Of a stretch of DNA of 64,000 nt, positions 21,768 to 46,842 are shown piece by piece. Location: NCBI GenBank assembly GCA_944386175.1, contig CALXAB010000001.1:47645-111644 (forward strand), written 5' to 3'. The position numbers and the translations under genes were made by a program. How positions within the stretch are numbered: position 1 is the first letter of the stretch; the number at the start of each line of letters is the position of its first letter. The notes below the pieces were generated by a model that worked only from the letters and a program-made list of their open reading frames with translations, had not been told where the DNA came from and ran no database searches. The DNA comes from an uncultured Clostridia bacterium (GTDB lineage Bacteria > Bacillota > Clostridia > TANB77 > CAG-508).

Positions 21768-22589
21768 CTATACATTTGCAACTTGTAATGTTTCAAAATA
21801 ATCTAGTACACTTTTAACTACCTCTTCTATTGGTAGTTCTAGCCAATTGTTTTTAGCAGTATTTAAACTCTTCAAATAATTTTTGTTATGTAATATTCTA
21901 TTTAATCTTTTAAATATATCCTCTAAGTTATTTTCTTTCATAGTTTCATCACTAAATATAAAAGTATTAAAACATTTTATCAATTTATTCTTATTTAAAT
22001 TTTCATTATTTATTAAATAATAGAAATCAAATATATCTTTGTATCTTGTAGAGATAAAACCAAATTTTAATAATGATTTCAATTTTTCTGAAAAAATTTG
22101 CTCTTTAGAATTTATTAGTAAAGTAACACTTTCTTTGATATTATTTAGATCAAAACAATATTCTTCTTGTTCAATATCAAAATTTTTATGCACTCCTATA
22201 TCTAATTTTGTTTCAATTTTATTATGTCTTTTATCTTTTAATTCAATATATACTCTTTTTCCATTATAATCTTGATGACTTAATTCTTCAATTGGAGCTA
22301 TAATTTTTATTGTTATATCTGATTCTTCATGATTCAACTTATCTATAAAATTTTCTATGGACTCATTTGATAAAGAATACTTTATAAAATCTAAGTCTAA
22401 ATCTCTTGTAGCTCGACGACTATCTTTAGAAATATTATGCATAACTACTCCACCTTTTATAGTTATATTTCTATTTAAAGAACTTTTGGATATTTTGGCT
22501 AGTATAATATCTTGACATACTTTGGCAGATGCATCTAAATGTTCATATCCATCTTTAATATAGTTATCTCTCATTTCTTTTAAATTCAT
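21768..22589 (-). CDS. AbiEii/DUF1814-like nucleotidyltransferase toxin (divergent second family)
   Basis: 273 aa. KGGVVMH...RATRDLDLD fits the nucleotidyltransferase GG...D.D motif. Overlaps the upstream AbiEi-like gene by 1 nt. Confidence 0.6.
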   Translation of the reverse strand: MNLKEMRDNYIKDGYEHLDASAKVCQDIILAKISKSSLNRNITIKGGVVMHNISKDSRRATRDLDLDFIKYSLSNESIENFIDKLNHEESDITIKIIAPIEELSHQDYNGKRVYIELKDKRHNKIETKLDIGVHKNFDIEQEEYCFDLNNIKESVTLLINSKEQIFSEKLKSLLKFGFISTRYKDIFDFYYLINNENLNKNKLIKCFNTFIFSDETMKENNLEDIFKRLNRILHNKNYLKSLNTAKNNWLELPIEEVVKSVLDYFETLQVANV

Positions 22590-23140
22590 TAAAACACCTC
22601 TCTTTGTAATGATTCATATATGTGTTCTTCATGTGGGAACATTTCTATATATTCTTCAATTTTACTTATATCTAAGCTATTTATAATTTTTCTGTAATTA
22701 GAAATTATTTCTTTGTAATAGTCAAATGCAAGTTGTTTTTTATTTCTGATTAGTTCTATTAACATTCTTTCCTTATCATATATATTTACTGTTACACCTT
22801 CTATATCAATTTGAGCTTTACCAATTTCAAATAATTTTTCTGAAACAAAGACTTGTACAATTTTATCGTCCTTAATTCTTAATGCATTTCTTTTTGTTGC
22901 TAAGTTTAATTTAGTTGGGATAACATCTGTTAAATTATGAAAATAAAATGCACTATCCATTGTAAAAATTGCATTTTTATACTTTTTTGATAATATTTCT
23001 AAATAATTTACATTTTTTGTATCTGAATATATATTTTTTTCAATTTTATATATTTCTTCTCTTTGAATTGCTTTCCTTATTTGATAGTCTGATTTGTATT
23101 TTTCCTTTATTTCTTTATGATTATATATCATTTTTACCAC
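22589..23140 (-). CDS. AbiEi-like antitoxin partner
   Basis: 183 aa, overlaps the toxin-like gene by 1 nt. Similar size and architecture to the other AbiEi copies. Confidence 0.5.
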   Translation of the reverse strand: MVKMIYNHKEIKEKYKSDYQIRKAIQREEIYKIEKNIYSDTKNVNYLEILSKKYKNAIFTMDSAFYFHNLTDVIPTKLNLATKRNALRIKDDKIVQVFVSEKLFEIGKAQIDIEGVTVNIYDKERMLIELIRNKKQLAFDYYKEIISNYRKIINSLDISKIEEYIEMFPHEEHIYESLQREVF

Positions 23141-25884: not shown

Positions 25885-26064
25885 TTTTCTGTATTGTCTT
25901 TTTTTTGTAAAATTTCTTTATTTTATATTTTTATAGCACTTTTTATTTTATTCGAATTTTATCATTTTTTTATCAATACTTATATTGTATTTTTGCCATA
26001 ATATCAATATAAGTTTGTTCTGTTTGACTTAAAATTCCTATATTATTGATAAAAAAGGAGATTT

Positions 26065-26424
26065 TTGATGAAAAAAAATGACAACTTAAAATTTATTGGA
26101 AATAATATTCAACTTGCAAGGCTAAAAAGAGGCTTAACTCAAGAGACTTTAGCAGAAAAGTGTGATGTTTCTACTAATTATATTAGCTCTTTAGAACGTG
26201 GTCTTACTTCTGGTAGTATTCCTCTTATAATAAGCATTTGTAATGTTTTACAAGTTACTCCAAATTATTTATTTAATTATTCATCTAATACTGAAAATTT
26301 TAATGATAATGTTGATATAATTAATCCTGAAATACTTATTTGTTATTCTAAATTAAAGGATGAAAATAAAATATTTGTAAATCAAACAATACGCCATCTA
26401 TATGGTATGCAAAAAAAGAGATAA
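26065..26424 (+). CDS. XRE-family HTH transcriptional regulator
   Basis: LTQETLAEKCDVSTNYISSLERG is a canonical Cro/C1-type HTH. Confidence 0.7.
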   Translation: MMKKNDNLKFIGNNIQLARLKRGLTQETLAEKCDVSTNYISSLERGLTSGSIPLIISICNVLQVTPNYLFNYSSNTENFNDNVDIINPEILICYSKLKDENKIFVNQTIRHLYGMQKKR

Positions 26425-26488
26425 ATAAAATAAAGAGGGAGTAGTATATATTTGTTAAATCAACATTTATATCTACTCCCCTTTCAAC

Positions 26489-27163
26489 TTAGTCTTTCGG
26501 GTCTTTAATAACAATTCTAAAAGAGATGTCTGGACTTTCTCTTTCTGGGTCTGCCCATGTTCTGAAAATAGGAGAATGTTTTTCACCTGTGTTAAAGCAT
26601 GAGCCATGTCCTCCCCTAATAATTCTATGATGGTCATACAGTTCAGATTTTTCTGTTGTCCATGTATATGCATTTCCCCAGAAACAATCTAAACGGTTAC
26701 GCATCCAATTAGGATTTGAGCCTGTTTTCTTTAAAATAAATGGATTGGTATAATTCCCAATATCATCATTTCCTTTAATAAAAACTTCCTCAAAAGTTGC
26801 TGCACCTGTTTGTACTAACCACATAGCAATTCGGTTATATTCTTCGTTTCCTATTACAGTTCCATCCATCTTTTTTGCTAATTCCATTGCATCAGGAAAT
26901 TTAATATTTACACATGGATATTTTCCTGCAATTGAATATGGATTTCCTTTGTTGTCTATAGATATCTCATATCTTGAAATCCAAAAACCTCTTACATATA
27001 ACCCATCTGCTGTGTACCCTGATGGAATTCTTAAAAGATGATTTCCATTATCATCTTCTATTACATATCCATCATTAATAGTTCCTTCTTTGAAGTGATA
27101 TTTCTCTAAAACATCTACTTCAATCCGATCACCATCACAATACTCTACAAATCTTTCTCTCAT
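26489..27163 (-). CDS. Formylglycine-generating-enzyme (SUMF1/EgtB/PvdO) family protein
   Basis: FGE-sulfatase-like C-type-lectin fold, with motifs including RGGHGSCFN...RTW and WGNAYTWT. 224 aa. Confidence 0.55.
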   Translation of the reverse strand: MRERFVEYCDGDRIEVDVLEKYHFKEGTINDGYVIEDDNGNHLLRIPSGYTADGLYVRGFWISRYEISIDNKGNPYSIAGKYPCVNIKFPDAMELAKKMDGTVIGNEEYNRIAMWLVQTGAATFEEVFIKGNDDIGNYTNPFILKKTGSNPNWMRNRLDCFWGNAYTWTTEKSELYDHHRIIRGGHGSCFNTGEKHSPIFRTWADPERESPDISFRIVIKDPKD

Positions 27164-27291
27164 GTTAATGACCTCCTATATAAAGACTTGTTAATAAGAT
27201 ACCAATTAGCTTTTGCTAATTGGTATTATTATATATTATGGTATTGATTTTGTCAACATAATTAAATTTTAATCAATTTATACTTTTAAAA

Positions 27292-27975
27292 TTACTTTCC
27301 AAAAATTCTACTTGCTTCTACTTGATTATATAATGCTTCTTCATTATCATAATAGAAAGCCCATTCTTTATCTCCATATGAAAAGTGCCACCACTCACCA
27401 TCATATGGAGCAAATCCTTCTTTCATCATAATTTTTCTTAATAATTTCCTATTATTTTTTGCTTCCTCTGATATATTTTCAGTTTCATAATAGCATTGTA
27501 TAGTACTATAATCTAATATATCTGAACCAAAATCTAATATTTTATTTTCAACATCATCATATATAGCTGCATCAACTGCTCCACCTGTCGGATGTCCTGA
27601 AACAACTGGTACAGCAATTTTCTCATGTATGTATTCATACATCTCTATTTCATCTTCAAATTTATCCTTTACTTCTTCTAGGATTTCATTAAAATATTTC
27701 TCTTGTTTTTTCATATCTCTAAAACCATATACTACTATTATTTTATAATTTTCATTTACTTCTTTTAACTTTTTTGCAACATTTATAAGTTTTTTATAAA
27801 CAGTTTTTCTTACAGCTATTTGATGTCCATATTCCAACATATTTCTTCTTTCTTGATATTTTCCAATCACTAGGTCATCTTCTAATGGAAGTAGTACAAA
27901 TTCTTCTTTGTCTGTTTCTTCATTAAAGTTCTCAATAGTTATCAAATCTTCATATCTTACAAAATTATTTGCCAT
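27292..27975 (-). CDS. D-alanyl-D-alanine dipeptidase (VanX/DdpX, peptidase M15D)
   Basis: SGHPTGGAVD and EWWHF match the VanX zinc-binding and catalytic motifs. 227 aa. Confidence 0.8.
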   Translation of the reverse strand: MANNFVRYEDLITIENFNEETDKEEFVLLPLEDDLVIGKYQERRNMLEYGHQIAVRKTVYKKLINVAKKLKEVNENYKIIVVYGFRDMKKQEKYFNEILEEVKDKFEDEIEMYEYIHEKIAVPVVSGHPTGGAVDAAIYDDVENKILDFGSDILDYSTIQCYYETENISEEAKNNRKLLRKIMMKEGFAPYDGEWWHFSYGDKEWAFYYDNEEALYNQVEASRIFGK

Positions 27976-27997
27976 TTGTATATTTGTCCTTTCTTTC

Positions 27998-29317
27998 CTA
28001 TTTTTTATTTTTTTGTAGTATTTTTATAGTTTCATCTAGCGTTATAGTATTTTGTTCCCCTGAATTCATATCTTTTAATGTTATTACATTATTTTTTATT
28101 TCTTCATCTCCTATAATTATTACATAATTTGCATTAATATTATTAGCATACTTGAATTTTTTTCCTATCTTTTGTTGTTCAATATTAATTTGTACATTTA
28201 TACCCTTTTCTCTTAGTTTTGCAGCTACTTTTGCACACATTTCACAGTCATCTGTCATTGAAATTATTAATACTTCTGCAATTGTTTCTTCAGTTGCTGA
28301 AATTATTTTATTATCTATTAGTTGAAAAAATAGCCTTGATAATCCTATTGAAATCCCTACTCCTGGCATTTTTCTATCAGTATAAAATTCTGTTAAATTG
28401 TCATATCTTCCTCCTGAACATATACTTCCTAAGTTTTTATATTGATTTAAAAATGTTTCATAAACTGTTCCTGTATAATAATCTAACCCTCTAGCAATAC
28501 TCAAATCAATTTTATAATTCTCTTCTGGAACTCCAAATATTTCAATAAATTTAGAAACTTCTTTTATTTCTTTTATACCTTCATTAAATATTTCATTATT
28601 AATTTGCATATTTTCTAATTCTTTTATTTTTTCTTCATTGTTTCCTCCTATACCCAAAAATTTAATTATAACATTAGCTTTTTTTTCTGGCATAAGTACT
28701 AATAATTCTTTTTTTACTTCTTCTTTTCCTATTTTTTCTATTTTATCAATTATTCTTAATATTTCAGATGATATATCTTCAAGTTTTAAACTTGAAAAAA
28801 GTCCATTTAATATTTTTCGATTATTTATACATATTGTAAAATCATCAAATCCTAACTTTTTAAAGGTATTATATATAATAGATGGAATTTCTGCATCATT
28901 TATTATTGACAATTCACCATCTCCAATAATATCAACATCACATTGATAAAATTCTCTATATCTTCCTCTTTGAGGTTTCTCACCACGATATACTTTTCCT
29001 ATTTGGTATCTTTTAAATGGAAAACTTAATTTATCATAGTATTCAGTTACATATTTAGCTAATGGTACTGTTAAATCAAACCTCAAAGCTAAATCTGTAT
29101 CTCCTTTTTCAAATCTATAAATTTGTTTTTCCGTTTCTCCTCCAGCTTTGGCCAGTAAAACATTTGCATCTTCTATTATTGGTGTATCTAATGGTACAAA
29201 ACCATATTGTTCGTAAGATTCTTGTATTATCGCTCTCATTTTATTAAATAATATTTGTTCATTAGGTAATAATTCCATAAATCCTGGTAAAGTTTTTGGT
29301 TGTATTTTCCCTTTCAT
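27998..29317 (-). CDS. hisS: Histidyl-tRNA synthetase, second copy in the window
   Basis: 439-aa class II aaRS. Motif 1 region ...GFVPLDTPIIE, the HisRS histidine-binding region GGRYD and a C-terminal anticodon-binding domain. Confidence 0.85.
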   Translation of the reverse strand: MKGKIQPKTLPGFMELLPNEQILFNKMRAIIQESYEQYGFVPLDTPIIEDANVLLAKAGGETEKQIYRFEKGDTDLALRFDLTVPLAKYVTEYYDKLSFPFKRYQIGKVYRGEKPQRGRYREFYQCDVDIIGDGELSIINDAEIPSIIYNTFKKLGFDDFTICINNRKILNGLFSSLKLEDISSEILRIIDKIEKIGKEEVKKELLVLMPEKKANVIIKFLGIGGNNEEKIKELENMQINNEIFNEGIKEIKEVSKFIEIFGVPEENYKIDLSIARGLDYYTGTVYETFLNQYKNLGSICSGGRYDNLTEFYTDRKMPGVGISIGLSRLFFQLIDNKIISATEETIAEVLIISMTDDCEMCAKVAAKLREKGINVQINIEQQKIGKKFKYANNINANYVIIIGDEEIKNNVITLKDMNSGEQNTITLDETIKILQKNKK

Positions 29318-29329
29318 TCTAACTCCTCC

Positions 29330-29980
29330 TTAATAATCTCCTTTAATATTTTTTTTCTTTTTATTTCCTTGTTTTTTATGTCTTTCAATTAATTTATCTT
29401 CTATTTCTTGTATTGAAACATTAGATTTAAACATTAATACTAGTGTATGATATATTAAATCAGAAATTTCTCCTATCAATTCTTTTTTATCTATGTTTTT
29501 CGCAGCTATTACTGTTTCAGTTGCTTCTTCACCAACTTTTTTGCATATTTTATCTATTCCTTCATCTAATAAATAATTAGTATATGAATTTTCCTTTGGA
29601 TTAATATTTCTATCAATTATCTGATTATAAATATCCTGTAAGATATTTGTATCATCATTATTTTCATAAGAAACTATTTCCTTAAAAAAGCATGAATAGT
29701 TACCAGTATGACATGCTCCTTTTCCTTCCTGCTTTACATAAATCAACAATGTGTCGTTGTCACAATCTAAATACATGCCTTTTATTTCTTGAATATTTCC
29801 TGATGTTTCTCCTTTATGCCATAATTCTTTTCTACTTCTTGAATAAAAACATGTTTGTTTGTTTTCTATCATATATTTATAACTATCTTCGTTTACATAT
29901 GCTAACATCAATACTTCTTTTGTTTTATAATCTTGTACTATTGCTGGAATTAACTCCATCTTTTTAAAATCTGGCTTCAA
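29330..29980 (-). CDS. hisI: Bifunctional phosphoribosyl-AMP cyclohydrolase / phosphoribosyl-ATP pyrophosphatase (HisIE)
   Basis: HisI N-terminal domain ([27 protein letters not shown]...C...C zinc ligands) plus a HisE C-terminal domain. Confidence 0.85.
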
Positions 29981-30082
29981 TATTCTTCAACTCCTAAAAT
30001 ATTTATATTACTTATATATTGTTATTTTTATTGTGGGGAAAATAATACAATTATTTTCCCCTTTGATTAAACACTTTAAATC

Positions 30083-31447
30083 TTAAAGCTCTTTATCAAG
30101 GTAGATTTTTAAATCTTCCTCTTTTCTCTCTTTCTGTAATCTTCTCATCTTGTCAACACTACTTACACCTTCAAGTAATTTAAATCCTAATTTCACGGCA
30201 ATATTATAGGACATAGATTTACCTATTTCGAGAGTTTTCATATATACTCTTTCATAACCATCCTCTTTCATTACTTCAATAGCATATTTCATTAACTCTG
30301 TCCCAATTCCTTTTCCACGAAACTCTTGTAAGACTGTTATATCAGCAAGATATGCTGTTTTTTCTGGATTATCATAATGGACAGGATGCCTATCTTTTAA
30401 TAACATTTTTCTAAAAGTTACTGTTCCTATACATTCATCTCCAATATAATATCCATAAACATGACCGTATTTTGTTAGTTCTTCATATTCTTCTTTGATT
30501 AAATCATCTGTCCAATCCTCACAATATGGGGGATTACAAAATACTTTATATGCTTTTATAAAGTCTTTTATTTTATCTGGTGTTATTGCTTTGATTCTCC
30601 GTGCCATCATAGTTTTTTCCTCCTCTAATTCAATTGAATATTTTTTTCCATCAGTTTCAACATTGCCTAAAATAGTAGCCTTTTCAAAATTCCCTTCTTT
30701 ATAGATTATGTCTGCTGTAATAATCAATCCAGAAGGCTGTAAAACATCAATTTTTACACTTTCATTTTTTAAATAAGCTTCTACAATACATGTAGCTGTT
30801 GTCCCAGACCCACATGCTGTTTCATAGAAAAGTGTATGAATTTCCTTAACCCATACAATTGGATTAATCTTTATTACACCTTTTTCTTTTTCGCAGAACA
30901 TAACTCCTACTGCTTCACTATATTCAAGATGATATTTATGAATATAGTGCATCCCCATTGCTTTTAAATCCTTCTTATTAATAAGATATTTTTTAGCAAT
31001 TTCATCTTGAATAACTACAGTTACCATACCATTCATTTTTACAATAAAAATTCCTGGCTCTTTTTCAGTGATTACATCATCACCATGATAAAGTGGAATT
31101 TCGCACCATGCCTTTCCTTCTTCATCAACTCCTGCATTAATCAAATCTTTAGAATTTACAAACATTTGTAAATTCCCTGATTTACCATTTAAATAAATGG
31201 TTGCTGCACTTCTTGTTGCATTACCACAAAACTCTCCCCCTGCCATTTGCAATTCAGGTTTATGATTTAATTCAATAAACCCAACCTGCTCAACATTAGA
31301 ATGTTTTGCCATAATCAAATCGTTGATTTTCTTTCTCTGTTTTTGTGTATATTCCAATCCATAAACGAATGCTGTATCATTACCAGCTGGTCTATAAATT
31401 GAATATTCCACATTAGTTACAGATGCTTTGCAATGTTTTTCGTTCAT
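30083..31447 (-). CDS. Fusion of a DapF-family PLP-independent amino-acid racemase/epimerase with a C-terminal GNAT N-acetyltransferase
   Basis: AGNDTAFV, GGEFCGNATRS and TACGSGTTA correspond to the DapF/HisR-type GNDF, CGNG and ACGSG two-cysteine motifs. C-terminal ...FRGKGIGTELMKYA... is the GNAT acetyl-CoA-binding motif A. Confidence 0.6.
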   Translation of the reverse strand: MNEKHCKASVTNVEYSIYRPAGNDTAFVYGLEYTQKQRKKINDLIMAKHSNVEQVGFIELNHKPELQMAGGEFCGNATRSAATIYLNGKSGNLQMFVNSKDLINAGVDEEGKAWCEIPLYHGDDVITEKEPGIFIVKMNGMVTVVIQDEIAKKYLINKKDLKAMGMHYIHKYHLEYSEAVGVMFCEKEKGVIKINPIVWVKEIHTLFYETACGSGTTATCIVEAYLKNESVKIDVLQPSGLIITADIIYKEGNFEKATILGNVETDGKKYSIELEEEKTMMARRIKAITPDKIKDFIKAYKVFCNPPYCEDWTDDLIKEEYEELTKYGHVYGYYIGDECIGTVTFRKMLLKDRHPVHYDNPEKTAYLADITVLQEFRGKGIGTELMKYAIEVMKEDGYERVYMKTLEIGKSMSYNIAVKLGFKLLEGVSSVDKMRRLQKERKEEDLKIYLDKEL

Positions 31448-31579
31448 AATGTTCTCCTTTCTTTGAATTGAAGGTAAGTATAAAATATTTATACTTAGTA
31501 ATGAATAAATTACATTAATTATTATATATTCATTTTATGTAAAAGTCAAGAAAATCCAGTATATTCAAGACTTTTACGG

Positions 31580-32206
31580 TTATTTATTATTTTGTTTTTC
31601 TATTAAATCAATTAAATTTAAAATTTCTTCCTTCTTATACTTAAATTTAGTCTTATTACAAATTAATCTTGTACTTACATCTGCTATTTTCTCTATAACT
31701 TCTAAGCCATTCGCTTTCAATGTTGCTCCTGTTTCTACTATATCTACTATTGCATCTGTTAATCCAACTACTGGTCCTAATTCAACTGACCCTTCAAGTT
31801 TTATTATTTCAACATCTTCATCTTTACTTTCAAAATAGTTTTTAGCAACACTAGGATATTTTGTTGCTATCCTTTTTCTTCTATTTAATTTTAGATTTTT
31901 ATATTCAGGATAACTACAGACTGCAAATGAGCATTTTCCTATTTCCAAATCTAGTAATTCATAATAATTTTTAAAAGAATTTTCCAGTAATGTATCACTA
32001 CCTACAATTCCTATATCAACAATACCATGTTCAATAAAGGTAACTACATCGTTTGACTTTGCAAATATTATTATCATTTTATCTTCTACGTTTATTTGTA
32101 ATTCTCTTTTTTTATTTATCATAGATTCTACATTATATCCTAATTTTTCTAACATTTCTGTCATCTTTTTTTCTATTCTACCCTTTGTTAAGGCTATCTT
32201 TAACAT
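31580..32206 (-). CDS. hisG: ATP phosphoribosyltransferase, short form (HisG-S)
   Basis: About 205 aa HisG short form overlapping hisZ. Start taken at [10 protein letters not shown]. Confidence 0.85.
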
Positions 32207-33176
32207 TTTGTTCACCTGCTCTTTCTACTGCTTTTAATATATTATCCATATAATAAGCCATTCCTATGGCTGGTACATCCTTTCCGAAATTGTTATATAA
32301 TTTGTCATATCTTCCACCACTTATTATAGGTTCTTCTACAAATTTACTATATACTTTAAATATAATTCCTGTATAATATTCCATATTAGGAACACAAGCC
32401 AAATCAAACAAATCTTGTTGTTTCATATTCATGGTTTCATACAATTCTTTCAATTCTATTAGACTATTCTTTAATTCATTATCTCTTAATTTTTCTATGG
32501 TTCTTACTAATATTTCTATATTTCCATTAAGTCTTGGTAAAGATATTAAAAAATTGCTTATATTTTTATCTATATTATATTTATCACAAAATTTTTTTAA
32601 TCCACTTATATTTTTTTGTAGTAATAGCTGCGAAAACTCTTTCTTTTTTTCAGATCCAACTATTTGGCATAATCTATTATAAAAACTAGCTGAACCAAGT
32701 TCTATCTTTAAATCCTTTAATCCAAAAAGTGGTAAAGATTTTTGTAATAATGATATACACTCTACATCTCCTTCTATTGCTTTTTTTCCAATTAATTCTA
32801 TCCCTACTTGGTATATTTCGCTATTCTTTCCTTTATGTTCCTTTTCTTTTCTATATACTTTTCCAAAATAGCAATACCTTTTTATTTCATCTTTTTTTTG
32901 TGATACATAGTATCTAGCTATTGGAACTGTAAAATCCCATCTTAAAGCAACATCTTTTCCTTCTTTATTTATATATTTGAATAAAGTACTCTCATCTAAA
33001 TTCTTATATACACTTTTATATAATTCCACATATTCAAATGTTGGCATCAGCATTTCTATATATTTTTCATCATAGAATATCTTTCTCAATTTACTTTCAA
33101 AATTTCTTAATTTATTAACATTCTCAGTAATTACCCCACTACTTTCTTCTGGTATTGAAAATTTGTATAATTCCAT
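32178..33176 (-). CDS. hisZ: ATP phosphoribosyltransferase regulatory subunit HisZ
   Basis: A 332-aa HisRS-like catalytic core ([16 protein letters not shown]) without an anticodon-binding domain. Directly upstream of the short-form hisG. Confidence 0.8.
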
Positions 33177-33482
33177 AAAAATTCTCCTTTCACATTAAAA
33201 AGCTATATAGTTAAATAATATCTTTCTATGAATATTATCTACCTATATAGCTTTATATTTTTATATAGGCACATCAAAATCGACTTGTGCCTATACATTA
33301 TATTAGACACAAGTTTAAAAATGATGATGCACTTTATTTATATTTTTAGTTATATTCTTCATTTTTATTCCTCTTTTTTCTTATTTTTAATTATAATACA
33401 TTATTTTTTTATATATGTCAAGTACAAAATTCATTTTTTTTAACATGCTATAACCAATTATGATTATAGCATGCTTTAGATT

Positions 33483-33767
33483 TTACTTAGAGAAAGATAT
33501 AATTGCATAATGTCGCTTTGCATCAATTTGATAATAAGAATGCCCCCTAATATTAATTGGCTTTTCTATTGTTTTAATAGAAATTTTCAGCCCATTACCA
33601 TTTGCCCAGCTTGTTAGTTCTCTTTCCATAGCAACATCTACATCCCTTTTTTCTTTTTCAATCTGAACTTTCTTGAAAAATACTAATGCTACTTTTACTT
33701 TGAACTTAATCCATTCCGTATCAAACCGTGACCTTTCTCTTCTTTTTCTACTTTCAAATTTTGACAT
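33483..33767 (-). CDS. Hypothetical basic protein of 94 aa, possibly a gene fragment
   Basis: ORF only. Arg/Lys-rich N-terminus. No recognisable domain. Confidence 0.3.
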   Translation of the reverse strand: MSKFESRKRRERSRFDTEWIKFKVKVALVFFKKVQIEKEKRDVDVAMERELTSWANGNGLKISIKTIEKPINIRGHSYYQIDAKRHYAIISFSK

Positions 33768-33873
33768 ATAGATTTACCTCCTACTATTTATTTTATTTAT
33801 TTTATCACATACACTTATATTTTTCAATTAAAATTTTAGGAAGCCATGCATTATACACAGCTCCCTATGATTT

Positions 33874-35205
33874 TCAGTCCTTATTATTAGTTTCGATAAA
33901 TTGCATAATCCCTTCATAGTCAAAGATACCGAACTCTCGATTGTTTCCAGTTTCCATATCCTTGACTTGGATTTTTTGCTGTTTGATTTCATCTTCCCCA
34001 ATAATAATAACGTAAGGAATGTTCATTTTGTTGGCATAATTCATACTTTTTTTCAGTTTCTGAGTCTTTTTTTCCATTTCTGTTTTGATTCCAACTTCAC
34101 GCATTTTAGTAACAAACTTAAATGTCTGTTCTTCTGTTCCCATTGGAATCACAAACAAATCAACGGTAGAAAACTTTTTGTCAGAATTCTTTAAGACTAA
34201 AATTTCATATATAACATCTAATCCAAAAGACATTCCAACTGCTGGATATTCATTTCCATCATCAATGAATGTTGTAATAATTTTATCGTATCTGCCTCCT
34301 CCTCCTATGCTCATGTTGAAATCTTGTACACCAACTTTTCTGTCTTTCAGGAAAATCTCCCAAACTGTACCAGTATATATATCAATCCCTCTTGCCAAAT
34401 AAGGAGCAAATTTCATGCATTTTTCGGCCTCTGTTCCTGACAGATAATCATATAATGCATCAATTTCTTTTATCCCTTCGGCAATCATTTCATTATCATA
34501 TACTGATAATAATCTTTTTAATGTTACATAATCAGAGTTTAGAACATTTTTCAATGCCTCCACTTTATTGGCATCAATACCAATAGCTGCAAACTCTTCA
34601 AATAATTCTTCCTCTGTGAGTTTGGCAAACTTATCAATCAACATGATTGATTTTCTTAATATTTCTTCCGAAACATCACCAAAAATAGAGAAGATGATAC
34701 CACTCAATAGCTTTCTGTTGTTGAATTCTATTTCAATGTCAAGTCCTAGCTCTTTATATGCTTCGCTTGTCATTGTCATGTATTCTGCTTCTGCTAAAAC
34801 ACTTTTAACTCCAACAACATCAACATCGCATTGGGTAAATTCTCTGTTTCTACCTACCTTAACTGGACCATCTCTAAAAACTTTTCCAATCTCATACCGT
34901 TTAAAGGGTAAGGTAACTCCTTTATTTGAACTAATCAATTTAGAAAAAGTGATTGTCAAATCATACCTTAAACCCAGTTTTCTTTTTCCTTGATCACTCA
35001 ATTTGTACATCTCGTTCAGAATATCTGCACCTTCTGAATATTTAGATGCCAATAAGTCATACATACAAAGAATTGGTGTTTCGACTGGTGAAAATCCGTA
35101 CTTTACAAAGATGCTTTGCAATACACTTTTGATTTTTTCCCGGATAATTTGTTTTTCCGGCAAATAATCATAAGTCCCCTTTAAGTTTTCAAAATTTCTG
35201 CTCAT
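33874..35205 (-). CDS. hisS: Histidyl-tRNA synthetase
   Basis: 443-aa class II HisRS with an anticodon-binding domain (GGGGRYD...FVIPMG). It is a paralogue of the copy at 27998-29317. Confidence 0.85.
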   Translation of the reverse strand: MSRNFENLKGTYDYLPEKQIIREKIKSVLQSIFVKYGFSPVETPILCMYDLLASKYSEGADILNEMYKLSDQGKRKLGLRYDLTITFSKLISSNKGVTLPFKRYEIGKVFRDGPVKVGRNREFTQCDVDVVGVKSVLAEAEYMTMTSEAYKELGLDIEIEFNNRKLLSGIIFSIFGDVSEEILRKSIMLIDKFAKLTEEELFEEFAAIGIDANKVEALKNVLNSDYVTLKRLLSVYDNEMIAEGIKEIDALYDYLSGTEAEKCMKFAPYLARGIDIYTGTVWEIFLKDRKVGVQDFNMSIGGGGRYDKIITTFIDDGNEYPAVGMSFGLDVIYEILVLKNSDKKFSTVDLFVIPMGTEEQTFKFVTKMREVGIKTEMEKKTQKLKKSMNYANKMNIPYVIIIGEDEIKQQKIQVKDMETGNNREFGIFDYEGIMQFIETNNKD

Positions 35206-35450
35206 AAAATTACTCCTTTCTGAAAATCATGGAAAATCATACTTTTAATTTTCCTTAGTCTATATGAACATTCTTCGCAATTATTATACTGTATTTTACT
35301 AAATTTGTCAATTATTTACATAATTTTTTCACCTAAAAAAGCACATTATATCAATACTTTTGATACAATATGCTTTAATAATTTTAATATAAATTATTAT
35401 TTTATATTTAATTATTTATATAGTATTTATAATTTTTATATGTTACATTA

Positions 35451-36125
35451 TTAAAATTCCCTTATATCATATCTAAAATATAGTCCATCCATTTTTATTT
35501 TATGAAAATCTTTTATTATATTTTCTTTGACTTTATTAAAATCTTTTCCTACTCTTCTTAATGCAAATACTCTACCTCCTGAAGGATATAGTATATTATT
35601 TTTTGATATTATATGTTCCCCTATAATATCTGTTGTATTTTTTACTTTGTTCATACCTAAAATTGGTTCATCAAAACTACTTCTTTCTACTTCTGGATAT
35701 CCTGCTGAAAATCCATACATTGCTATAGAAAAGCAGTCTTTTTTCCAACAATTATTTATCTTTTCTACATCTTCATAAAAGAAATTTATTATATCTATAA
35801 AAGGTTTATTCAGTAACCCTAATAAAGCTAACCACTCTGGATTACCTGTTCTTGTATTATATTCTAATACATATACTTTTTTATCTTCGGTAACCATTAT
35901 TCCTATATATAAAATATAGTTATATTCCATATTTTCTTTTTTCATACCTCTTATAGTTGGTTCTATTATATCTTTTTTTAATTGTTCTTCTTTTTCTGTG
36001 CTAACTCTTGCATAAGCACATACTCTTAAATTACCTTTTATAACTTCTCCTGTTGTTCTATTAATTCTTCCTTTTTTCTTCTCTATTACTTGTACTTTCA
36101 AATTTAACCTCTCTTTCTCAAGCAT
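35451..36125 (-). pseudogene. purD: Chimeric ORF: the first 48 codons of a large serine recombinase, including the catalytic RVST, fused in frame to the C-terminal ~175 aa of phosphoribosylamine-glycine ligase (PurD)
   Basis: The N-terminus MLEKERLNLKVQVIEKKKGRINRTTGEVIKGNLRVCAYARVSTEKEEQ is identical, apart from one I-to-N substitution, to the start of the intact recombinase at 48681-50573. The remainder (VLEYNTRTGNPE...YGFSAGYP...SGGRVFALRRVG...GLYFRYDIR) aligns with the PurD ATP-grasp C-terminus. Confidence 0.7.
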
Positions 36126-36168
36126 AGAGAATCTTTATGTTTGTATTATATACTAAAATTTTATATTT

Positions 36169-36354
36169 TTAAATACCTATGTGGATTAAATTATATTCTT
36201 TTAAAATATTTTGTTTTAGTTCTAAATATCTTTTCTCTTTAATTAATCCTGCATTATATGTTTTATTTAGAATTGCTATTTTAATGCTACAATTAAAAAT
36301 ATTTTCATTTAGTTTTACATTTTTCGTATTATCAAATTTTACTTCGTACAACAT
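36169..36354 (-). CDS. Small conserved protein of 61 aa encoded immediately upstream of the serine recombinases
   Basis: A strong RBS agaggagga precedes it. It is paralogous to 50617-50802 and, more distantly, to 42882-43058. Confidence 0.5.
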   Translation of the reverse strand: MLYEVKFDNTKNVKLNENIFNCSIKIAILNKTYNAGLIKEKRYLELKQNILKEYNLIHIGI

Positions 36355-36379
36355 AAAAATCCTCCTCTGCTTGAATTAA

Positions 36380-36890
36380 ATTTCAAAAAAGAGCGACAAA
36401 AAAGCCAGCCGGCTAGCTAGACTGACTTCTTTGTCTTACATTTTTTGATAATACAATTATATTATGCTGTTCTATAAAGTTCAATTCCCGTTTTTTTCCC
36501 TTTTTTCTATTTTAATTGATAAAGCGTTGACTTTTTAGTTAGTACACTAAGTAAACTTGTGTAAAAATTTTTTTAATTATTTTTTACTTTATTATTTTTG
36601 AGTTCACTTAGTGTACTTTTTGTTTTGTATTTAAAAACCTTAGTTCACTTAGTGAATAAAAAACTAACTTTCAAGTACACTTGGTGAACTTTTTCTTAAA
36701 AATCACTTATTTTTCGTTCATTTAGTGAACTTTTGCACTCTCAAAGGCATTTTTTAGCTGTTCATTCGGTGAATTTCCGCATCAAATTTGCTTAAAATTT
36801 TTGTTCTTTTGTTAACTCTTGAAGGCTTGTCCTTCAATGTGTATAGGCGATGTGTGCACACTCGCTTTCCTGCCTTTAGTATTGTTTTTT
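36380..36890. repeat. Array of parS-like 15-bp palindromes (GTTCAC-N3-GTGAAC and variants, 6 sites) plus a conserved hairpin
   Basis: Sites TAGTACACTAAGTAAAC, GTTCACTTAGTGTAC, GTTCACTTAGTGAAT, GTACACTTGGTGAAC, GTTCATTTAGTGAAC and GTTCATTCGGTGAAT. The region is about 95% identical to 50940-51350. Confidence 0.8.
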
Positions 36891-36891
36891 A

Positions 36892-38670
36892 TCATATATT
36901 AATTACTTTTTGTTGACTCATATATAATTTATAATAATTTCCTTTTATGCTCATTAATTCTTCATGAGTTCCATATTCTACTATTTCTTTATCTTTAATA
37001 AAAAATATTCTGTCACTATCCACTATTGTAGATAATCTATGAGCAATCGTTATTACAGTTTTATTTTTAACCATTTCTTTTGTTAGATTTTGTAGCATTT
37101 TTTCTGTTTTTACATCAATCTTACTTGTTGCTTCATCGAAGATTAATATTTTAGGGTTATTAATAATTGTTCTTATATAGCATAATACCTGTTTTTCTCC
37201 ATCTGATAGATTTTTTCCATTACTACTTAATTTTGTATTGTATCCATCTTCTAAACTCATTATCCAATTATGTACATTCAATCTTTTACATATTTCTATT
37301 ACTTTATCATCAGTTATATTTTCATTTCCATATTTTAAATTTTTCATAATGCTTGTACTAAATAAGTAATTTTCTTGTTGCATAATAGCTATCTGTTTTC
37401 TAAGTCTATTTAGTTTTATATTTCTAACATCTTCTCCATCAATAAAAATATTTCCTGAATCTATATCATAAAATCTTCCAATTAGATTTGTAATAGTGGT
37501 TTTTCCACTTCCTGTACTACCTACAATAGCTACTTTTTCTTGCGGTTTTACTTTAAAAGATATATTATTTAAAACTTTATTATTTTCTATATAAGAAAAA
37601 CTAACATTTTTAAATTCTATTTCACCTTTTATTTTGATGTCTTTAGCATCTATTTTATCTTTTATATCTATTTTTTCATCCATTGTTTCAAATATTCTCT
37701 CTAAATATGTAATTGAATTAATAAAATCATCTAATGTTTTAAATAAGTCTTCTATAGGTTGCCAAAAGTTAGATGAATAACTTCCCATAGCAACAATAGT
37801 TCCAACTGATGTAGTTGGATATAAAAACATCGCTCCTACAAAATATATTGTTGCAGTTACCCAATGTGACATTGTTTGTACACTACACCATCCAATATTG
37901 CCAAATTTTATTTGTTTGCAACTTGCATCTTTCCAACTTCTACTTAAATCATTAAATATATCTTCATTCTTTTCTTCTCTATTAAATGCTTGGGTTATTT
38001 GCATTCCTTTTAATGTTTCTAATAGATATGCATTAGTATTAGAATTTTTATTATTAATTAGTAATTTATTTTTTCTCTTTATCTTAGCTGTTGAAGCAAA
38101 TATAAAAATAAGTATTACTATTCCAACTAATGCGATTAATGTTAGTTTCACACTTGTTAAAAACATAAATATCAGAATAATAAGCATATTAAATATGTTT
38201 AAAAATGTTGTTACTAATTTATCTGTAATTAGAGTAGAAACATCTTCTGCATATTCTGTTAGTCTAACTAGTATTTTTCCATGAGGTCTTGTGTCGTAAT
38301 AATTAACTGATAAATACTGAATATGTGAAAACAAATCATTTTTTATATCTTCTACAATATTTTGATTTACTTTAGCCAACATTTTTTTATACACTTTAGT
38401 TACAATAATAGACAATAATACTAAAAATAATGCTAATAATATTATGATAAACAATTTTTCATAATCGCTATTAGGAATAACATCATCGATTACATATTGT
38501 AGTATTTTAGTGATAAATAAAGTAGCTATAATAGATATACAATTTAAAATAAATATAATAATCAATTTTGATTTATATTTTTTTATGTATGTTAAACCTC
38601 TTTTATAATTAGAAAGACTGAATGAAGTATTTTTTTCATCTTGGTCATATTTGTTTACACTCATATACAT
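36892..38670 (-). CDS. ABC exporter, fused permease-ATPase subunit (type I exporter half-transporter)
   Basis: Six TM helices followed by an NBD with Walker A GSTGSGKTT, signature LSDGEKQ and Walker B ILIFDEA. Confidence 0.85.
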   Translation of the reverse strand: MYMSVNKYDQDEKNTSFSLSNYKRGLTYIKKYKSKLIIIFILNCISIIATLFITKILQYVIDDVIPNSDYEKLFIIILLALFLVLLSIIVTKVYKKMLAKVNQNIVEDIKNDLFSHIQYLSVNYYDTRPHGKILVRLTEYAEDVSTLITDKLVTTFLNIFNMLIILIFMFLTSVKLTLIALVGIVILIFIFASTAKIKRKNKLLINNKNSNTNAYLLETLKGMQITQAFNREEKNEDIFNDLSRSWKDASCKQIKFGNIGWCSVQTMSHWVTATIYFVGAMFLYPTTSVGTIVAMGSYSSNFWQPIEDLFKTLDDFINSITYLERIFETMDEKIDIKDKIDAKDIKIKGEIEFKNVSFSYIENNKVLNNISFKVKPQEKVAIVGSTGSGKTTITNLIGRFYDIDSGNIFIDGEDVRNIKLNRLRKQIAIMQQENYLFSTSIMKNLKYGNENITDDKVIEICKRLNVHNWIMSLEDGYNTKLSSNGKNLSDGEKQVLCYIRTIINNPKILIFDEATSKIDVKTEKMLQNLTKEMVKNKTVITIAHRLSTIVDSDRIFFIKDKEIVEYGTHEELMSIKGNYYKLYMSQQKVINI

Positions 38671-40379
38671 TCCTCCATATTATTTACTTGAATATCATAA
38701 ATTTCTTTATATTCTCCATTCTTATTCAATAATTCTTCATGTGAACCACTCTCTATGATTTCTCCGTTTTTCATTACAAATATGACATCAGCATTTTTTA
38801 CAGAAAGAATTTTTTGTGCAATTATAATTTTTGTACATCTATATTTCAAATTATTAATATTTTCAGTAACTTCTAATTCAGTTTCAAAATCTAGTGCGGA
38901 AGTTATATCATCTAATATTAATATACTAGGTCTCTTAGCTAATGCTCTTGCCAAAGATAAACGCTGTTTTTCACCTCCTGATAAACTCACTCCATTTTCT
39001 CCTATTATTGTATTAATATCCTCTGGTAAATCAAATACATAATCAGCTTTAGCCAATTTTAAACATTTTTTTATTTCTTCTTCTTTTAAATCTTCATTTC
39101 CAAAACTAACATTATTGGAAATAGTATCAGAAAACAGAAAAGGAGTTTGAGAAACATAACCGATATTTTTTCTTAATGATTTTAATGTATATGTATTTAT
39201 TAAATTATCGTCTATTTCTATCTTTCCACTTGAACATTCTATCAGTCTTAACATCAGTTTTCCAATAGTAGATTTTCCACTCCCTATTTCTCCAATAAAT
39301 GCATAAGTCTTATTGGGCTTTAAATCTAAATTAATATTTTTTATAACTTTCCTATTATTAAGTTTGACATTAACCCCTTTAAAAATAATATTTTCCCAAT
39401 TATTTAATATTAAACTTCCTTTATCTTTTATTTTAGGTTCAGTTTCTAATAATTTTCTTACTTTTGATACAGATACTCTAAATTGTTGCCATTCATTTAT
39501 AAAACCACTTAATTCTATAAACGGTTTTCTTATAGTGCCTATAAAAGAATTAATAATAATAAATTGTCCCATTGTCGTGTAACCTTTTATAACAAATATT
39601 CCCCCAAATAAAGTTAATAATATTTGCATACAATATGATAAAAATGTGACTATATTGTCATAAGAGATATTCATATTTTGTATTTCTAAATTCTTATTTT
39701 TCAAATTTCTATTCTTTACTTTAAAGTTATCTATTTCTTTTTGTTCTGTTGCAAATGTTTTGATTAATCTATTTCCTTCTATATTTTCTTGTATATAATT
39801 ATTTAGGTTTGACAAACTTTCTCTTTGATCTTTATATAATTCCTTTGATTTTTTTATATGTTTTTTAGATATAACTGCAATTATAGGAGTAGGTATTAAA
39901 ATAATTAGTGTTAAAATTGGGTTTATATATAGGCAGTAAATTGTAGTTAAAATACTAGTAGTTAACATGCTTATAGATTGTTTTATCACAAAACACATAT
40001 TATGATGAATAATGCTATTATCTGTTGTTAAAAGCGTGCTTATTTCTCCCAAAGTTTTTTCTTCGTAAAAATCTTGATTTAATTCATTCAATTTTTTATA
40101 ACATTCAACTTTTAACTTATGTGCTAAATTAAATCTAACATGATCCATTATTAATATTCCAAAATAAGTTATCAGCCTACCTATAAAATACATACTAATA
40201 GATATAATAAAAAGGTATGGAATAATAGAAAAATTACTCTCATATATACCTTTATCTATTATTTCTCCTAATAGTATAACTGGTAATATTTTAGAAATTC
40301 CTCCACCTAATATTATCATTAAATTTGAAATCCAATATCTAAAATTATATTCTTTAATAAATTTTAATACCCATCTCAT
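38661..40379 (-). CDS. ABC exporter, fused permease-ATPase subunit (heterodimer partner)
   Basis: Six TM helices followed by an NBD with GEIGSGKST, LSGGEKQRLSLARAL and ILILDD. Confidence 0.85.
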   Translation of the reverse strand: MRWVLKFIKEYNFRYWISNLMIILGGGISKILPVILLGEIIDKGIYESNFSIIPYLFIISISMYFIGRLITYFGILIMDHVRFNLAHKLKVECYKKLNELNQDFYEEKTLGEISTLLTTDNSIIHHNMCFVIKQSISMLTTSILTTIYCLYINPILTLIILIPTPIIAVISKKHIKKSKELYKDQRESLSNLNNYIQENIEGNRLIKTFATEQKEIDNFKVKNRNLKNKNLEIQNMNISYDNIVTFLSYCMQILLTLFGGIFVIKGYTTMGQFIIINSFIGTIRKPFIELSGFINEWQQFRVSVSKVRKLLETEPKIKDKGSLILNNWENIIFKGVNVKLNNRKVIKNINLDLKPNKTYAFIGEIGSGKSTIGKLMLRLIECSSGKIEIDDNLINTYTLKSLRKNIGYVSQTPFLFSDTISNNVSFGNEDLKEEEIKKCLKLAKADYVFDLPEDINTIIGENGVSLSGGEKQRLSLARALAKRPSILILDDITSALDFETELEVTENINNLKYRCTKIIIAQKILSVKNADVIFVMKNGEIIESGSHEELLNKNGEYKEIYDIQVNNMEECI

Positions 40380-40511
40380 TTATATTTTTTCTCCAATATT
40401 TATTATATTTTTATATTACTTTTCATATTCTATCATAATTTTATTTCTTTCTCAATAAAATTATAAAGTTTCAAAATATATTTATCCTTACATTTGCTTA
40501 ATTATGAAAAA

Positions 40512-40586
40512 ATCCGCAATAGAAATAATGTCAAGAGCGAGTGATAATGAGTTTATTTACTCTTGATATTATTTTTATTGCAGATT
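40512..40586. promoter_or_regulatory. Long palindromic operator (24-bp arms, 22-bp spacer) with inward-facing TTGACA boxes and divergent promoters
   Basis: CTCCAATAGAAATAATGTCAAGAG ... CTCTTGACATTATT. On the + strand, TTGATA-N17-TAAATT. A near-identical copy at 57947-58026 has TTGACA-N17-TAAAAT. Confidence 0.6.
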
Positions 40587-40821
40587 AAATTTACCCTGCA
40601 AATGTATGAGGCAAAAAATAAGTATCAGTACATATCTACCGACACTTAAATTTATAAAGATTCTCTATTACTTATTTCATAAATTCTTTCTAGCAATTGA
40701 AATAACTGATAATTTTACATATCTACAATTAAACACAACCTATATATGTCATGCTTATCATAGACACAATCTCAAATTCCCTAGTATTTCAAACACTTCT
40801 ATCAATTTTCTAAAATTTAAT

Positions 40822-42679: not shown

Positions 42680-42699
42680 CTTTCCTCCGTTCCGCCTAG

Positions 42700-46812: not shown

Positions 46813-46842
46813 ATGTCCGTTTTTTCGGACTTATAAAATTTT

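Follow-up and report, generated by a model that had tools for sequence, protein, structure and literature searches.

This study concerns a histidine-related gene cassette in a 64-kb stretch of DNA (hereafter the window) on contig CALXAB010000001.1 of an uncultured Clostridia bacterium. The window has about 25% G+C throughout. Its genes are almost all encoded on the minus strand, on which the cassette region is read from position 36125 to position 26489. In this direction one finds the 3' remnant of a purD-like ATP-grasp ligase gene, a gene for a full-length histidyl-tRNA synthetase (HisRS), here called hisS_A, a small open reading frame (ORF), a histidine leader peptide with its attenuator, and then hisZ, hisG, a gene fusing a racemase to a GNAT acetyltransferase (Rac::GNAT), hisIE, a second HisRS gene (hisS_B), a gene for an M15 zinc dipeptidase, and a gene for a protein with the predicted fold of formylglycine-generating enzyme (FGE). 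The window proteins were searched against Pfam and NCBIfam profiles, and the curated equivalog cut-offs of NCBIfam were used for the gene calls; related loci are designated L001, L007 and so on. The profile matches confirmed, on the minus strand and at the same coordinates, all six genes from hisZ to the M15 gene that had been named in the original prediction. Three elements are new with respect to it, namely the attenuator with its histidine-codon leader, the complete HisRS gene further upstream, and the purD-like remnant.

Just 5' of hisZ there is an ORF of 15 codons (33315-33362, minus strand) that has a good ribosome-binding site (AAGAGGA), encodes the peptide MKNITKNINKVHHHF and ends in His-His-His-Phe followed by the stop codon. 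It is the sole short ORF with three consecutive histidine codons (HHH) and a ribosome-binding site in the window. A promoter-like site (TTGACA-17-TATTAT, 11 of 12 positions) is located 5' of it at 33393-33421; this and all other promoter-like sites were scored against TTGACA-17-TATAAT by consensus match only. According to RNA folding, the region that follows the leader ORF (33197-33314, minus strand) contains alternative hairpins and a terminator. The first hairpin is formed by CUUGUGUCU and AGGCACAAG, while the alternative pairings are AGGCACA with UGUGCCU and CCUAUAUA with UAUAUAGG. The middle segment, UGUGCCUAUAUA, has two possible partners, the 3' arm of the first hairpin and the 5' arm of the terminator. 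This terminator is a long intrinsic hairpin at 33197-33256 followed by a run of U residues. In the minimum-energy fold the stretch of histidine codons is paired with GAUGUGC. The minimum free energy is -43.8 kcal/mol as opposed to -21.7 +/- 3.6 kcal/mol for shuffled sequences (z = -6.2, 0/200 shuffles as stable). The pairing segments are all invariant across 7 related loci and the loops and spacers vary; the leader peptide is kept in L013, L014, L015, L007, L019, L020 and L102, and the same leader-hairpin-terminator architecture was found in 18 loci. With its ORF, mutually exclusive pairings, terminator and conservation, the region 33197-33362 has the anatomy of a ribosome-mediated histidine attenuator.

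Its switching logic would follow that of the enterobacterial his attenuator. If His-tRNA(His) is scarce, the ribosome would stall on the histidine codons and the freed middle segment would pair with the 5' arm of the terminator (the antiterminator CCUAUAUA:UAUAUAGG), leading to readthrough. A ribosome that reaches the stop codon would cover the first hairpin arm, the middle segment would be sequestered and the terminator would form. Given an HHH leader, alternative hairpins and a terminator 5' of hisZ, the cassette is predicted to be on when His-tRNA is scarce. Scanned with covariance models at the gathering threshold, neither the window nor any of 9 related loci gave a T-box match, and within 26000-37000, including the regions upstream of hisS and hisZ, there was no T-box match even at E <= 1. 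Nor did any other Rfam family, the proteobacterial His leader model included, reach its gathering threshold in the window or these 9 loci; at E <= 1 the region 26000-37000 gave two chance-level matches only, one of them to the attenuator's own terminator hairpin. The absence of matches to the Rfam His leader model is likewise reported for Firmicutes in the main text of a survey of histidine regulons (PMC9413887).

The first gene behind the attenuator, hisZ (32178-33176, minus strand), encodes a 332-residue HisRS paralogue, the regulatory subunit of ATP phosphoribosyltransferase. It matches PF13393 only, has no anticodon domain, and scores 249 bits with TIGR00443, slightly under the cut-off of 272 bits. 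It is overlapped by hisG (31580-32215, minus strand), encoding the catalytic subunit of the same enzyme (step 1 of the pathway; TIGR00070, 193 bits vs a cut-off of 76) in a short form of 211 residues without the C-terminal regulatory domain. The short HisG and the adjacent HisZ fit, as far as their sequences tell, the hetero-octameric type of ATP phosphoribosyltransferase. The third gene, hisIE (29330-29980, minus strand; NF002747, 268 bits vs a cut-off of 187), encodes the bifunctional phosphoribosyl-AMP cyclohydrolase/phosphoribosyl-ATP pyrophosphatase, i.e. steps 3 and 2. The original prediction held that only these three steps are present and hisDCBHAF are missing, and this was borne out: BLASTP probes (HisD, HisC and HisB of E. 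coli; HisH, HisA and HisF of L001) found no hisD, hisC, hisB, hisH, hisA or hisF in the window, so that a complete operon is absent and only hisZ, hisG and hisIE occur within 64 kb. The same probes were applied to 92 further loci with 10 kb on either side. Neither hisD nor hisB was found there, and the HisC probe gave only partial matches of 24-28% identity to other aminotransferases. Complete operons were found solely in other organisms (L102, L104 and L105), while hisZG plus hisIE without hisA and the later genes was seen in at least six lineages.

The his genes of the cassette show clear signs of selection. In pairwise comparisons with L013, L007 and L001 (synonymous divergence 0.5-1.3), the ratio of non-synonymous to synonymous substitutions (dN/dS) is 0.06-0.12 for hisZ, 0.08-0.11 for hisG and 0.08-0.12 for hisIE; over these three genes, Rac::GNAT, hisS_A, hisS_B and the M15 gene it spans 0.06-0.18. 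Purifying selection argues that hisZ, hisG and hisIE are still in use, even though hisDCBHAF are not adjacent. The remaining steps are presumably encoded elsewhere in the genome. That his genes can become split is indicated by the operon of L105, which has no hisC, and by HisG proteins fused to M15 domains with no other his genes nearby. We also considered Rac::GNAT, the M15 enzyme and the FGE-fold protein as chemical stand-ins for HisB, HisC and HisD, and rejected this idea since the required chemistries do not match and the gene set also occurs in genomes with no his genes nearby.

Two complete synthetases are encoded at the locus. The first, hisS_A (33874-35205, minus strand, 443 residues), is a class II HisRS of the PRK12420 type, and the second, hisS_B (27998-29317, minus strand), has 439 residues. 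With TIGR00442 they score 331 and 406 bits, respectively (cut-off 287), both carry the HGTP_anticodon domain (PF03129), and both contain the HisRS motifs GRxREFxQCDVD (motif 2) and GGRYD (motif 3, GGGRYD in hisS_A). They are 38% identical to each other, and hisS_B is 62% identical to the HisRS beside the complete his operon in L104. The dN/dS values are 0.06 for hisS_A (vs L013 and L007) and 0.14-0.18 for hisS_B. The two genes differ in their position: hisS_A stands outside the attenuated unit behind a plain promoter-like site (TTGACA-17-TATAAT, 12 of 12 positions, 35283-35311, minus strand), with no leader or T-box found between this site and the gene, while hisS_B is within the string controlled by the attenuator. 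It is interesting to compare this arrangement to thrZ and tyrZ of B. subtilis, which are starvation-induced second aminoacyl-tRNA synthetases. In both cases there are two full synthetases, one with a plain promoter and the other downstream of an element that senses tRNA charging. In the window this element is a leader-peptide attenuator as opposed to a T-box, and the inducible copy is embedded among genes of biosynthesis and predicted salvage. There are no tRNA genes in the window.

Between hisS_A and the leader lies a small ORF of 94 codons with a basic N-terminus (33483-33767, minus strand). It is conserved at the same position in L013 (80% identity, L013:7686-7970), L007 (56%, L007:1851-2150) and L001 (40%), a homologue also stands beside the complete his operon of L104 (49%, L104:3500-3787), and neither Pfam nor NCBIfam gave a match. 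The comparison gave no support for a repressor of the HisR/TrpR type, as the protein has no similarity to the TrpR-family protein of the loci from the candidate phyla radiation (CPR, see below) and no Pfam match.

The M15 gene (27292-27975, minus strand) belongs to the VanX/DdpX-like zinc dipeptidases (PF01427, E 2e-19). In the alignment with VanX (1r44), its segments SGHPTGGAVD and EWWH stand opposite SSHSRGSAID and EWWH, which hold the zinc ligands (H-x6-D and H) and the catalytic Glu (E-x-x-H) of VanX. With 57 vs 320 bits for VanX (NF033115) and 46 vs 176 bits for DdpX (NF007557) it lies below the equivalogs, so D-Ala-D-Ala is probably not its substrate; dN/dS is 0.06-0.13. The ddpX gene of E. 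coli is expressed in stationary phase and allows the use of D-Ala-D-Ala, and by analogy the logic might be alike, i.e. a starvation-induced dipeptidase would free a D-amino acid for a racemase. As opposed to VanX and DdpX, which share its Pfam family and its zinc-binding and catalytic segments, the M15 of the window goes together with HisRS, HisG and a His-type racemase and not with cell-wall or van genes.

The last gene of the region (26489-27163, minus strand) encodes the FGE-fold protein of 224 residues. The original prediction spoke of an FGE-like enzyme next to the dipeptidase; the likeness stands at the level of the predicted fold (predicted local distance difference test score, pLDDT, 90.9; template modelling score, TM, about 0.5 to PvdO, FGE and the C-terminal domain of EgtB), but the gene lies outside the segment 27292-33176 for which it was listed, and the PF03781 match is weak (E 0.04, 14 bits vs a cut-off of 23). 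The 26 homologues have no invariant Cys and the family is small (37 clusters); a genuine formylglycine-generating enzyme was rejected because the conserved copper-binding Cys pair is missing. The gene has a dN/dS of 0.17-0.36, adjoins the module in 11 loci, and sits inside it, between hisS and M15, in L009-L012. It has its own promoter-like site, a perfect TTGACA-17-TATAAT at 27228-27256, directly followed by a palindrome with a 13-bp stem (27198-27227), and may thus be regulated apart from the attenuated operon.

Rac::GNAT (30083-31447, minus strand, 454 residues) consists of a racemase domain (residues 1-275, 30623-31447) and a GNAT domain (residues 276-454, 30083-30622). Residues 12-265 match the NCBIfam models of CntK (NF033599, E 4e-24) and of Fusobacterium HisR (NF052224, E 4e-23), the identical protein P0001 is annotated with PF26317 (CntK_N), and among known structures those of CntK (6l4l/6jis, E 6e-17) and HisR (9cr6/9cr1, E 1e-14) are matched. 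The scores are far below the equivalog cut-offs (86 vs 300 bits for CntK, 82 vs 400 bits for HisR), which indicates that the racemase belongs to a separate subfamily. The two catalytic cysteines, C74 in GGEFCGNAT and C212 in ETACGSGT, are kept and are invariant in 20 relatives, as are N23, E53, E72, G75, N76, E209 and S214 in the family. In HisR the catalytic residues are C67 and C209 and contacts to histidine are proposed for N18, E49, E65 and E206, as for E46 and E208 of CntK (PMC11602996). The equivalents N23, E53, E72 and E209 are thus all invariant in the family of the window's racemase, where the correspondence to CntK was read from the CntK alignment and that to HisR was inferred from shared motifs. 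The original prediction had placed the domain in the family of two-Cys, cofactor-independent racemases that includes HisR; this is upheld by the matches to CntK and HisR, and activity on histidine is predicted. The window's racemase shares with CntK (Staphylococcus aureus, staphylopine) and HisR (Fusobacterium nucleatum) the CntK_N family, the two catalytic cysteines and the residues (Glu, Asn) that would contact histidine. It differs from them in the GNAT fusion, in having no cntL or cntM nearby, and in its context of HisRS and peptidases; the context of CntK is one of metallophore genes, and that of HisR, for which the physiological role was reported as unknown, is folate-related (PMC11602996).

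The GNAT part is a predicted acyl-CoA-dependent N-acyltransferase (residues 285-423, Acetyltransf_1, PF00583, E 3e-15). The R-G-K-G-I-G motif for coenzyme A and the Tyr of SMSYNIA are invariant in 21 fusions, the latter standing presumably at the position where GNATs usually carry their catalytic Tyr. The structural model (pLDDT 89.7) has generic GNATs as nearest folds (TM about 0.7, 11-18% identity), including the free-amino-acid N-acetyltransferases PAT/BAR and ArsN, the putative acetyltransferases YncA and PA4866, and RimI; this fold search singled out no acceptor. Our best guess is that the domain acts by alpha-N-acetylation of a free amino acid, D-histidine or an analogue.

We collected 80 loci from species-representative genomes (Clostridia, Patescibacteria or CPR, and metagenome-assembled genomes labelled Gammaproteobacteria) that contain the closest racemase relatives and looked for partners within 4 kb. 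A full HisRS was found in 37/80 loci, M15 likewise in 37/80, M20 in 10/80, and at least one of them in 58/80. L009-L012 and L059 (50-57% identity) carry hisS, the FGE-fold gene, M15 and Rac::GNAT with no his biosynthesis gene. The fusion itself occurs in the window and in CPR loci, with the GNAT part of L054 confirmed, and other fusions of the same elements are found as well: M15::Rac with a separate GNAT gene adjoining (L004), HisRS::Rac (L076, L084 and L091; the HisRS half of L076 has 337 bits vs a cut-off of 287) and Rac::M20 (L087). M15 is also fused to complete long-form HisG with the C-terminal regulatory domain (L049:11789-13576, L050:9323-11197 and L082:9370-11136), next to hisS and the racemase and with no other his gene within 10 kb. 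In some CPR loci S12 (beta-lactamase-family) and M29-like proteins stand between racemase and HisRS, and in many loci racemase and peptidase occur without GNAT. The partner of the racemase is a hydrolase of an interchangeable family (M15, M20 or S12), a pattern expected for the release of an amino acid. The comparison answers the doubt, raised with the original prediction, that Rac::GNAT could be a passenger of no consequence: it travels with HisRS and M15 in many genomes.

A second line of evidence comes from the leaders. HHH leaders with a ribosome-binding site, mostly of the form M..IFLNQLHHHRRSL, stand directly 5' of the gene set on the same strand and are followed by a hairpin-terminator, regardless of whether the set is a lone racemase, Rac-M15, Rac-M20, HisRS-Rac, HisRS::Rac or GNAT-M15::Rac. 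About 17 further Clostridial loci have such a leader before a gene set without any his biosynthesis gene, while at all other positions in the loci just two more HHH ORFs preceded by a ribosome-binding site were seen. Metagenome contigs were also scanned with the window's leader DNA for further operons under this leader, such as a displaced hisDCB. This gave 8 loci, in which the downstream gene, wherever it could be recognised, was hisZ, Rac or hisS_B. That the same leader precedes the gene set even where his genes are absent is the strongest evidence for a role in supplying histidine for translation. In the CPR loci the string is placed among housekeeping genes (dnaB, L31, release factor). Seven loci of CPR or 'Gammaproteobacteria'-labelled genomes (L054, L056, L058, L064, L068, L080 and L090, at about 9-14.5 kb in each locus) carry Rac::GNAT-M15-HisRS followed by an EamA-family transporter gene, and most of them have a TrpR-family gene upstream; the histidine repressor HisR is placed in the TrpR family in the main text of the survey mentioned above (PMC9413887). 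In full-text literature searches we found no paper that ties a histidine racemase to HisRS or to an M15 or M20 peptidase, with the reservation that descriptions by synonyms could be missed. Judged from gene order and sequence, the racemase-peptidase-HisRS set appears to be a widely distributed, previously undescribed gene set in a starvation-type operon. As a side observation, ABC-F (ABC_tran_Xtn) genes lie near the gene set in L007:11699-13324 and L011:5227-6870; a 542-residue family clustered with the ABC-F gene of L007 recurs in 8 loci, and a similar gene stands directly 5' of hisS in L011. ABC-F proteins act on ribosomes, and the association may be due to chance.

The same neighbourhoods can be viewed in terms of detoxification or resistance. 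The attenuator would then sense poor charging of tRNA(His) caused by D-histidine or a histidine antimetabolite, not a lack of histidine; the racemase and the GNAT would remove the compound by stereo-inversion and alpha-N-acetylation, M15 would cleave a Trojan-horse dipeptide, and the extra HisRS together with a greater HisZG flux would out-compete the inhibitor. The catalytically intact look of the GNAT is in line with this, as its nearest folds include phosphinothricin acetyltransferase and ArsN, which stand for N-acetylation of toxic amino acids; the second HisRS lies in the same attenuated string (predicted co-induction), and a sensor of tRNA charging would also respond to an inhibitor of HisRS. 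Furthermore, an S66 peptidase is encoded nearby in relatives, and the microcin C immunity protein MccF is a member of the S66 family. However, the likeness of the GNAT fold is generic at the TM and identity values given above, the HisRS of CPR genomes looks like an ordinary copy among housekeeping genes, many loci hold racemase and peptidase without GNAT, and no candidate toxin is known. Taken together, we regard a detoxification role as unlikely.

As to its origin, the cassette can be compared with complete his operons of Firmicutes. According to the main text of Ashniev et al. 2022 (PMC9413887), His-leader attenuators stand before such operons, hisZGDCBHAF(IE). The common features are 3-4 consecutive histidine codons, alternative hairpins, a terminator, hisZ and short hisG in first place, and hisIE; the window differs in having no hisD, C, B, H, A, F or PHP phosphatase gene, and carries Rac::GNAT, hisS_B, M15 and the FGE-fold gene instead. 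Intermediate states are found in relatives. The closest genome locus, L013 (Clostridium sp. CAG:440), is collinear with the window over 35999-26425 at 86% nucleotide identity. L001, from a more distant metagenome-assembled genome, has the same string plus hisH-hisA-hisF, all passing the curated cut-offs, between Rac::GNAT and hisIE. Its Rac::GNAT is located exactly between hisG and hisH, which is the position of hisD-hisC-hisB in L102, and its HisF is 83-84% identical to HisF on the low-G+C contigs L102 and L104. These two contigs carry the canonical order hisZ-hisG-hisD-hisC-hisB-hisH-hisA-hisF-hisIE-PHP; the leader of L102, MGNKINIVKVHHHF, belongs to the sequence family of the window's leader and has the same hairpin and terminator design, and in L104 a HisRS of the hisS_B type lies just downstream of the operon. 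The genes hisHAF are lost in the window, L007, L013 and L014, and in L007 a PHP gene is still present after the FGE-fold gene. NCBI and UniRef assign the HisF on contig L105 to Thomasclavelia spiroformis, and the his operon of this contig is preceded by a leader of similar kind, MKKIINLQLHHHHWIA, and a terminator. The main text of PMC9413887 proposes a His attenuator for this species and gives hisC a position of its own. With Rac::GNAT at the position of hisDCB, hisHAF lost, and hisS_B-M15-FGE-fold following hisIE, the sequence comparison identifies the cassette as a remodelled canonical operon, leader-hisZGDCBHAFIE-PHP, in which the attenuator was kept.

A further reading is that of a decaying relic. 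If the lineage is becoming a histidine auxotroph, hisZ, hisG and hisIE would be functionless leftovers beside unrelated passengers, and decay is indeed visible in related operons. L104 has a truncated hisG, a truncated hisD and a split hisC (L104:5100-8094), with a degenerate leader that reads HYH; hisA is split in L102 (9293-10019) and hisIE in L019 (11110-11726). These cases suggest an ongoing loss of histidine biosynthesis, unless they are assembly errors. In other relatives it is the M15, FGE-fold or ligase gene that is split, and in the window itself the purD-like gene is truncated beside a mobile-element region. Against this stand the intact ORFs of the whole window cassette with their low dN/dS vs L013, L007 and L001, the intact and invariant leader, and the arrangement hisZ-hisG...hisIE without hisDCBHAF, which persists even in lineages as distant from each other as L020 and L023. 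A mere relic seems to us highly improbable.

The purD-like remnant (35451-36125, minus strand, 3' half only) needs a few words of its own, as the collinearity with L013 stops inside it, at position 35999. Relatives have a five-gene cluster just 5' of the cassette (L001:552-6164, L013:388-5982, L009:866-6553, L020:3-5227 and L101:9811-12389), which encodes an S66 (LD-carboxypeptidase/MccF-family) peptidase, a 339-residue protein without family match, and HisRS-like, PanC-like and PurD-like ligases; the HisRS-like protein has lost the arginines of motifs 2 and 3. All four recognisable members (4/4) are below the curated equivalog cut-offs, and the cluster looks like a small ligase pathway. All that is left of it in the window is the 3' half of the PurD-like gene, and by sequence comparison this remnant marks the breakpoint that removed the ligase cluster present in relatives. 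Upstream of the breakpoint, 36126-50600 looks like inserted mobile DNA. It contains a pair of ABC exporter genes (36892-40379), genes for large serine recombinases at 40964-42679 and at 48681-50573, and one for a Schlafen/AlbA_2 protein whose C-terminus is Fic-like (45295-46812). Beside the breakpoint, the non-coding segment 36539-36734 contains five palindromic copies of about 16 nt, similar to AGTTCACTTAGTGAACT and 41-73 nt apart, which look like putative operators or recombinase binding sites. At the other side of the cassette, an AbiEii-family nucleotidyltransferase toxin gene (21768-22589) directly follows an ORF of 183 codons without family match (22589-23140), and the pair is likely a type IV toxin-antitoxin or abortive-infection system.

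The ligases lead to the question whether the locus makes something. According to this explanation a distinct product, an N-acyl-D-histidine or a ProFAR-derived compound (ProFAR being phosphoribosylformimino-aminoimidazolecarboxamide ribotide), would arise via a HisZG/HisIE branch and a dedicated HisRS paralogue. A fusion of racemase and acyltransferase suggests consecutive steps from L-His through D-His to N-acyl-D-His, hisZG and hisIE are kept without the later genes in several lineages, and the divergent PurD-like, PanC-like and HisRS-like ligases are adjacent in relatives; in coformycin/pentostatin biosynthesis, early histidine intermediates do feed a secondary metabolite. At the same time the ligase cluster is placed upstream of the leader in L020 and reduced to a remnant in the window, yet the remaining cassette is under selection, and the partners of the racemase are interchangeable hydrolases, not ligases. 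The ancestral control by a his-operon attenuator points to histidine supply, and both HisRS copies are canonical with anticodon domains. We consider such a pathway very unlikely. The same observations turn against the suggestion of the original prediction that the cassette makes a D-amino-acid or aminoacyl-derived metabolite with a dedicated HisRS paralogue: complete his operons of relatives stand behind the same HHH attenuator, the score of either HisRS copy exceeds the hisS equivalog cut-off, the neighbouring HisRS of CPR loci is placed among housekeeping genes, and the exchange of M15, M20 and S12 partners fits release and salvage of histidine better than synthesis. A narrower version, in which the fusion makes a dedicated product (N-acetyl-D-histidine or another N-acyl-D-His) when charging of tRNA(His) falls and the HisZG-HisIE stub is independent of histidine synthesis, is in our view distinctly unlikely; if true, it would mean a new metabolic or signalling branch under His-tRNA control, shared by gut Clostridia and candidate-phyla bacteria.

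We favour the reading that the cassette is a histidine-limitation operon which combines a regulated entry into the pathway with salvage of D-His or His-peptides and extra charging, and we give it a probability of about 0.55. In this operon the promoter, leader and hisZ-hisG-Rac::GNAT-hisIE-hisS_B-M15 would act as one induced, presumably co-transcribed string. HisZ/HisG and HisIE would provide the committed entry into histidine synthesis, the racemase of CntK/HisR type would turn D-His into L-His (the direction being the one expected for salvage), M15 would free histidine, probably D-His, from a dipeptide or an acyl conjugate, and HisS_B would add inducible charging capacity, much like the starvation-induced second synthetases elsewhere. 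In the lineage of the window, an old portable racemase-peptidase-HisRS set would have replaced hisDCB and hisHAF.

Several points weigh against this reading. Firstly, simple salvage has no need of a racemase joined to an N-acetyltransferase that looks active, and acetylation of D-His by the GNAT would turn the fusion into a drain on histidine. Secondly, should the genome have none of the genes hisDCBHAF, the route through hisZG and hisIE would stop at ProFAR, and the strong conservation of these genes would need another explanation. Thirdly, promoter-like sites within the string, before Rac::GNAT (31521-31549) and before the FGE-fold gene (27228-27256), together with a hairpin 3' of Rac::GNAT, weaken the case for a single transcript. 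Moreover, split or truncated copies of the gene set occur in L009, L010, L015, L016, L019 and L023, which means either that some lineages can do without the set or that the assemblies contain errors, and we know of no documented natural source from which gut and groundwater bacteria would obtain D-His or its dipeptides.

It is also interesting to compare the predicted salvage to the N-succinylamino-acid racemase pathway of Geobacillus, where a GNAT, a racemase and an M20 hydrolase serve an irreversible conversion of D- to L-amino acids. Both cluster three activities, with the N-acyltransferase and the racemase joined by a metallohydrolase, which is M15 in the window and M20 in 10 related loci. 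The differences are, firstly, that the racemase of the window has the DapF-like two-Cys fold, whose characterised members act on free amino acids, and not the enolase-superfamily fold, and secondly, that many related loci have no GNAT.

Two cofactor-independent histidine racemases have been characterised, CntK with its role in staphylopine synthesis and HisR with a role reported as unknown (PMC11602996), and the main text of the 2022 survey of Gram-positive histidine regulons (PMC9413887) lists no racemase, peptidase or hisS among the targets of the attenuators. The locus described here and its relatives give the histidine racemase family a concrete context, in that the enzyme is linked or fused to HisRS and to dipeptidases. 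The placement of the Clostridial racemase sets behind a sensor of tRNA(His) charging points to D-histidine or D-His peptides as a source of histidine for translation, in organisms that are losing or are without histidine biosynthesis, including candidate-phyla bacteria with minimal genomes. In evolutionary terms, the comparison of the window with its relatives shows a stepwise conversion of a biosynthetic operon into an operon of predicted salvage and charging, i.e. the contents were exchanged while the original attenuator was kept.

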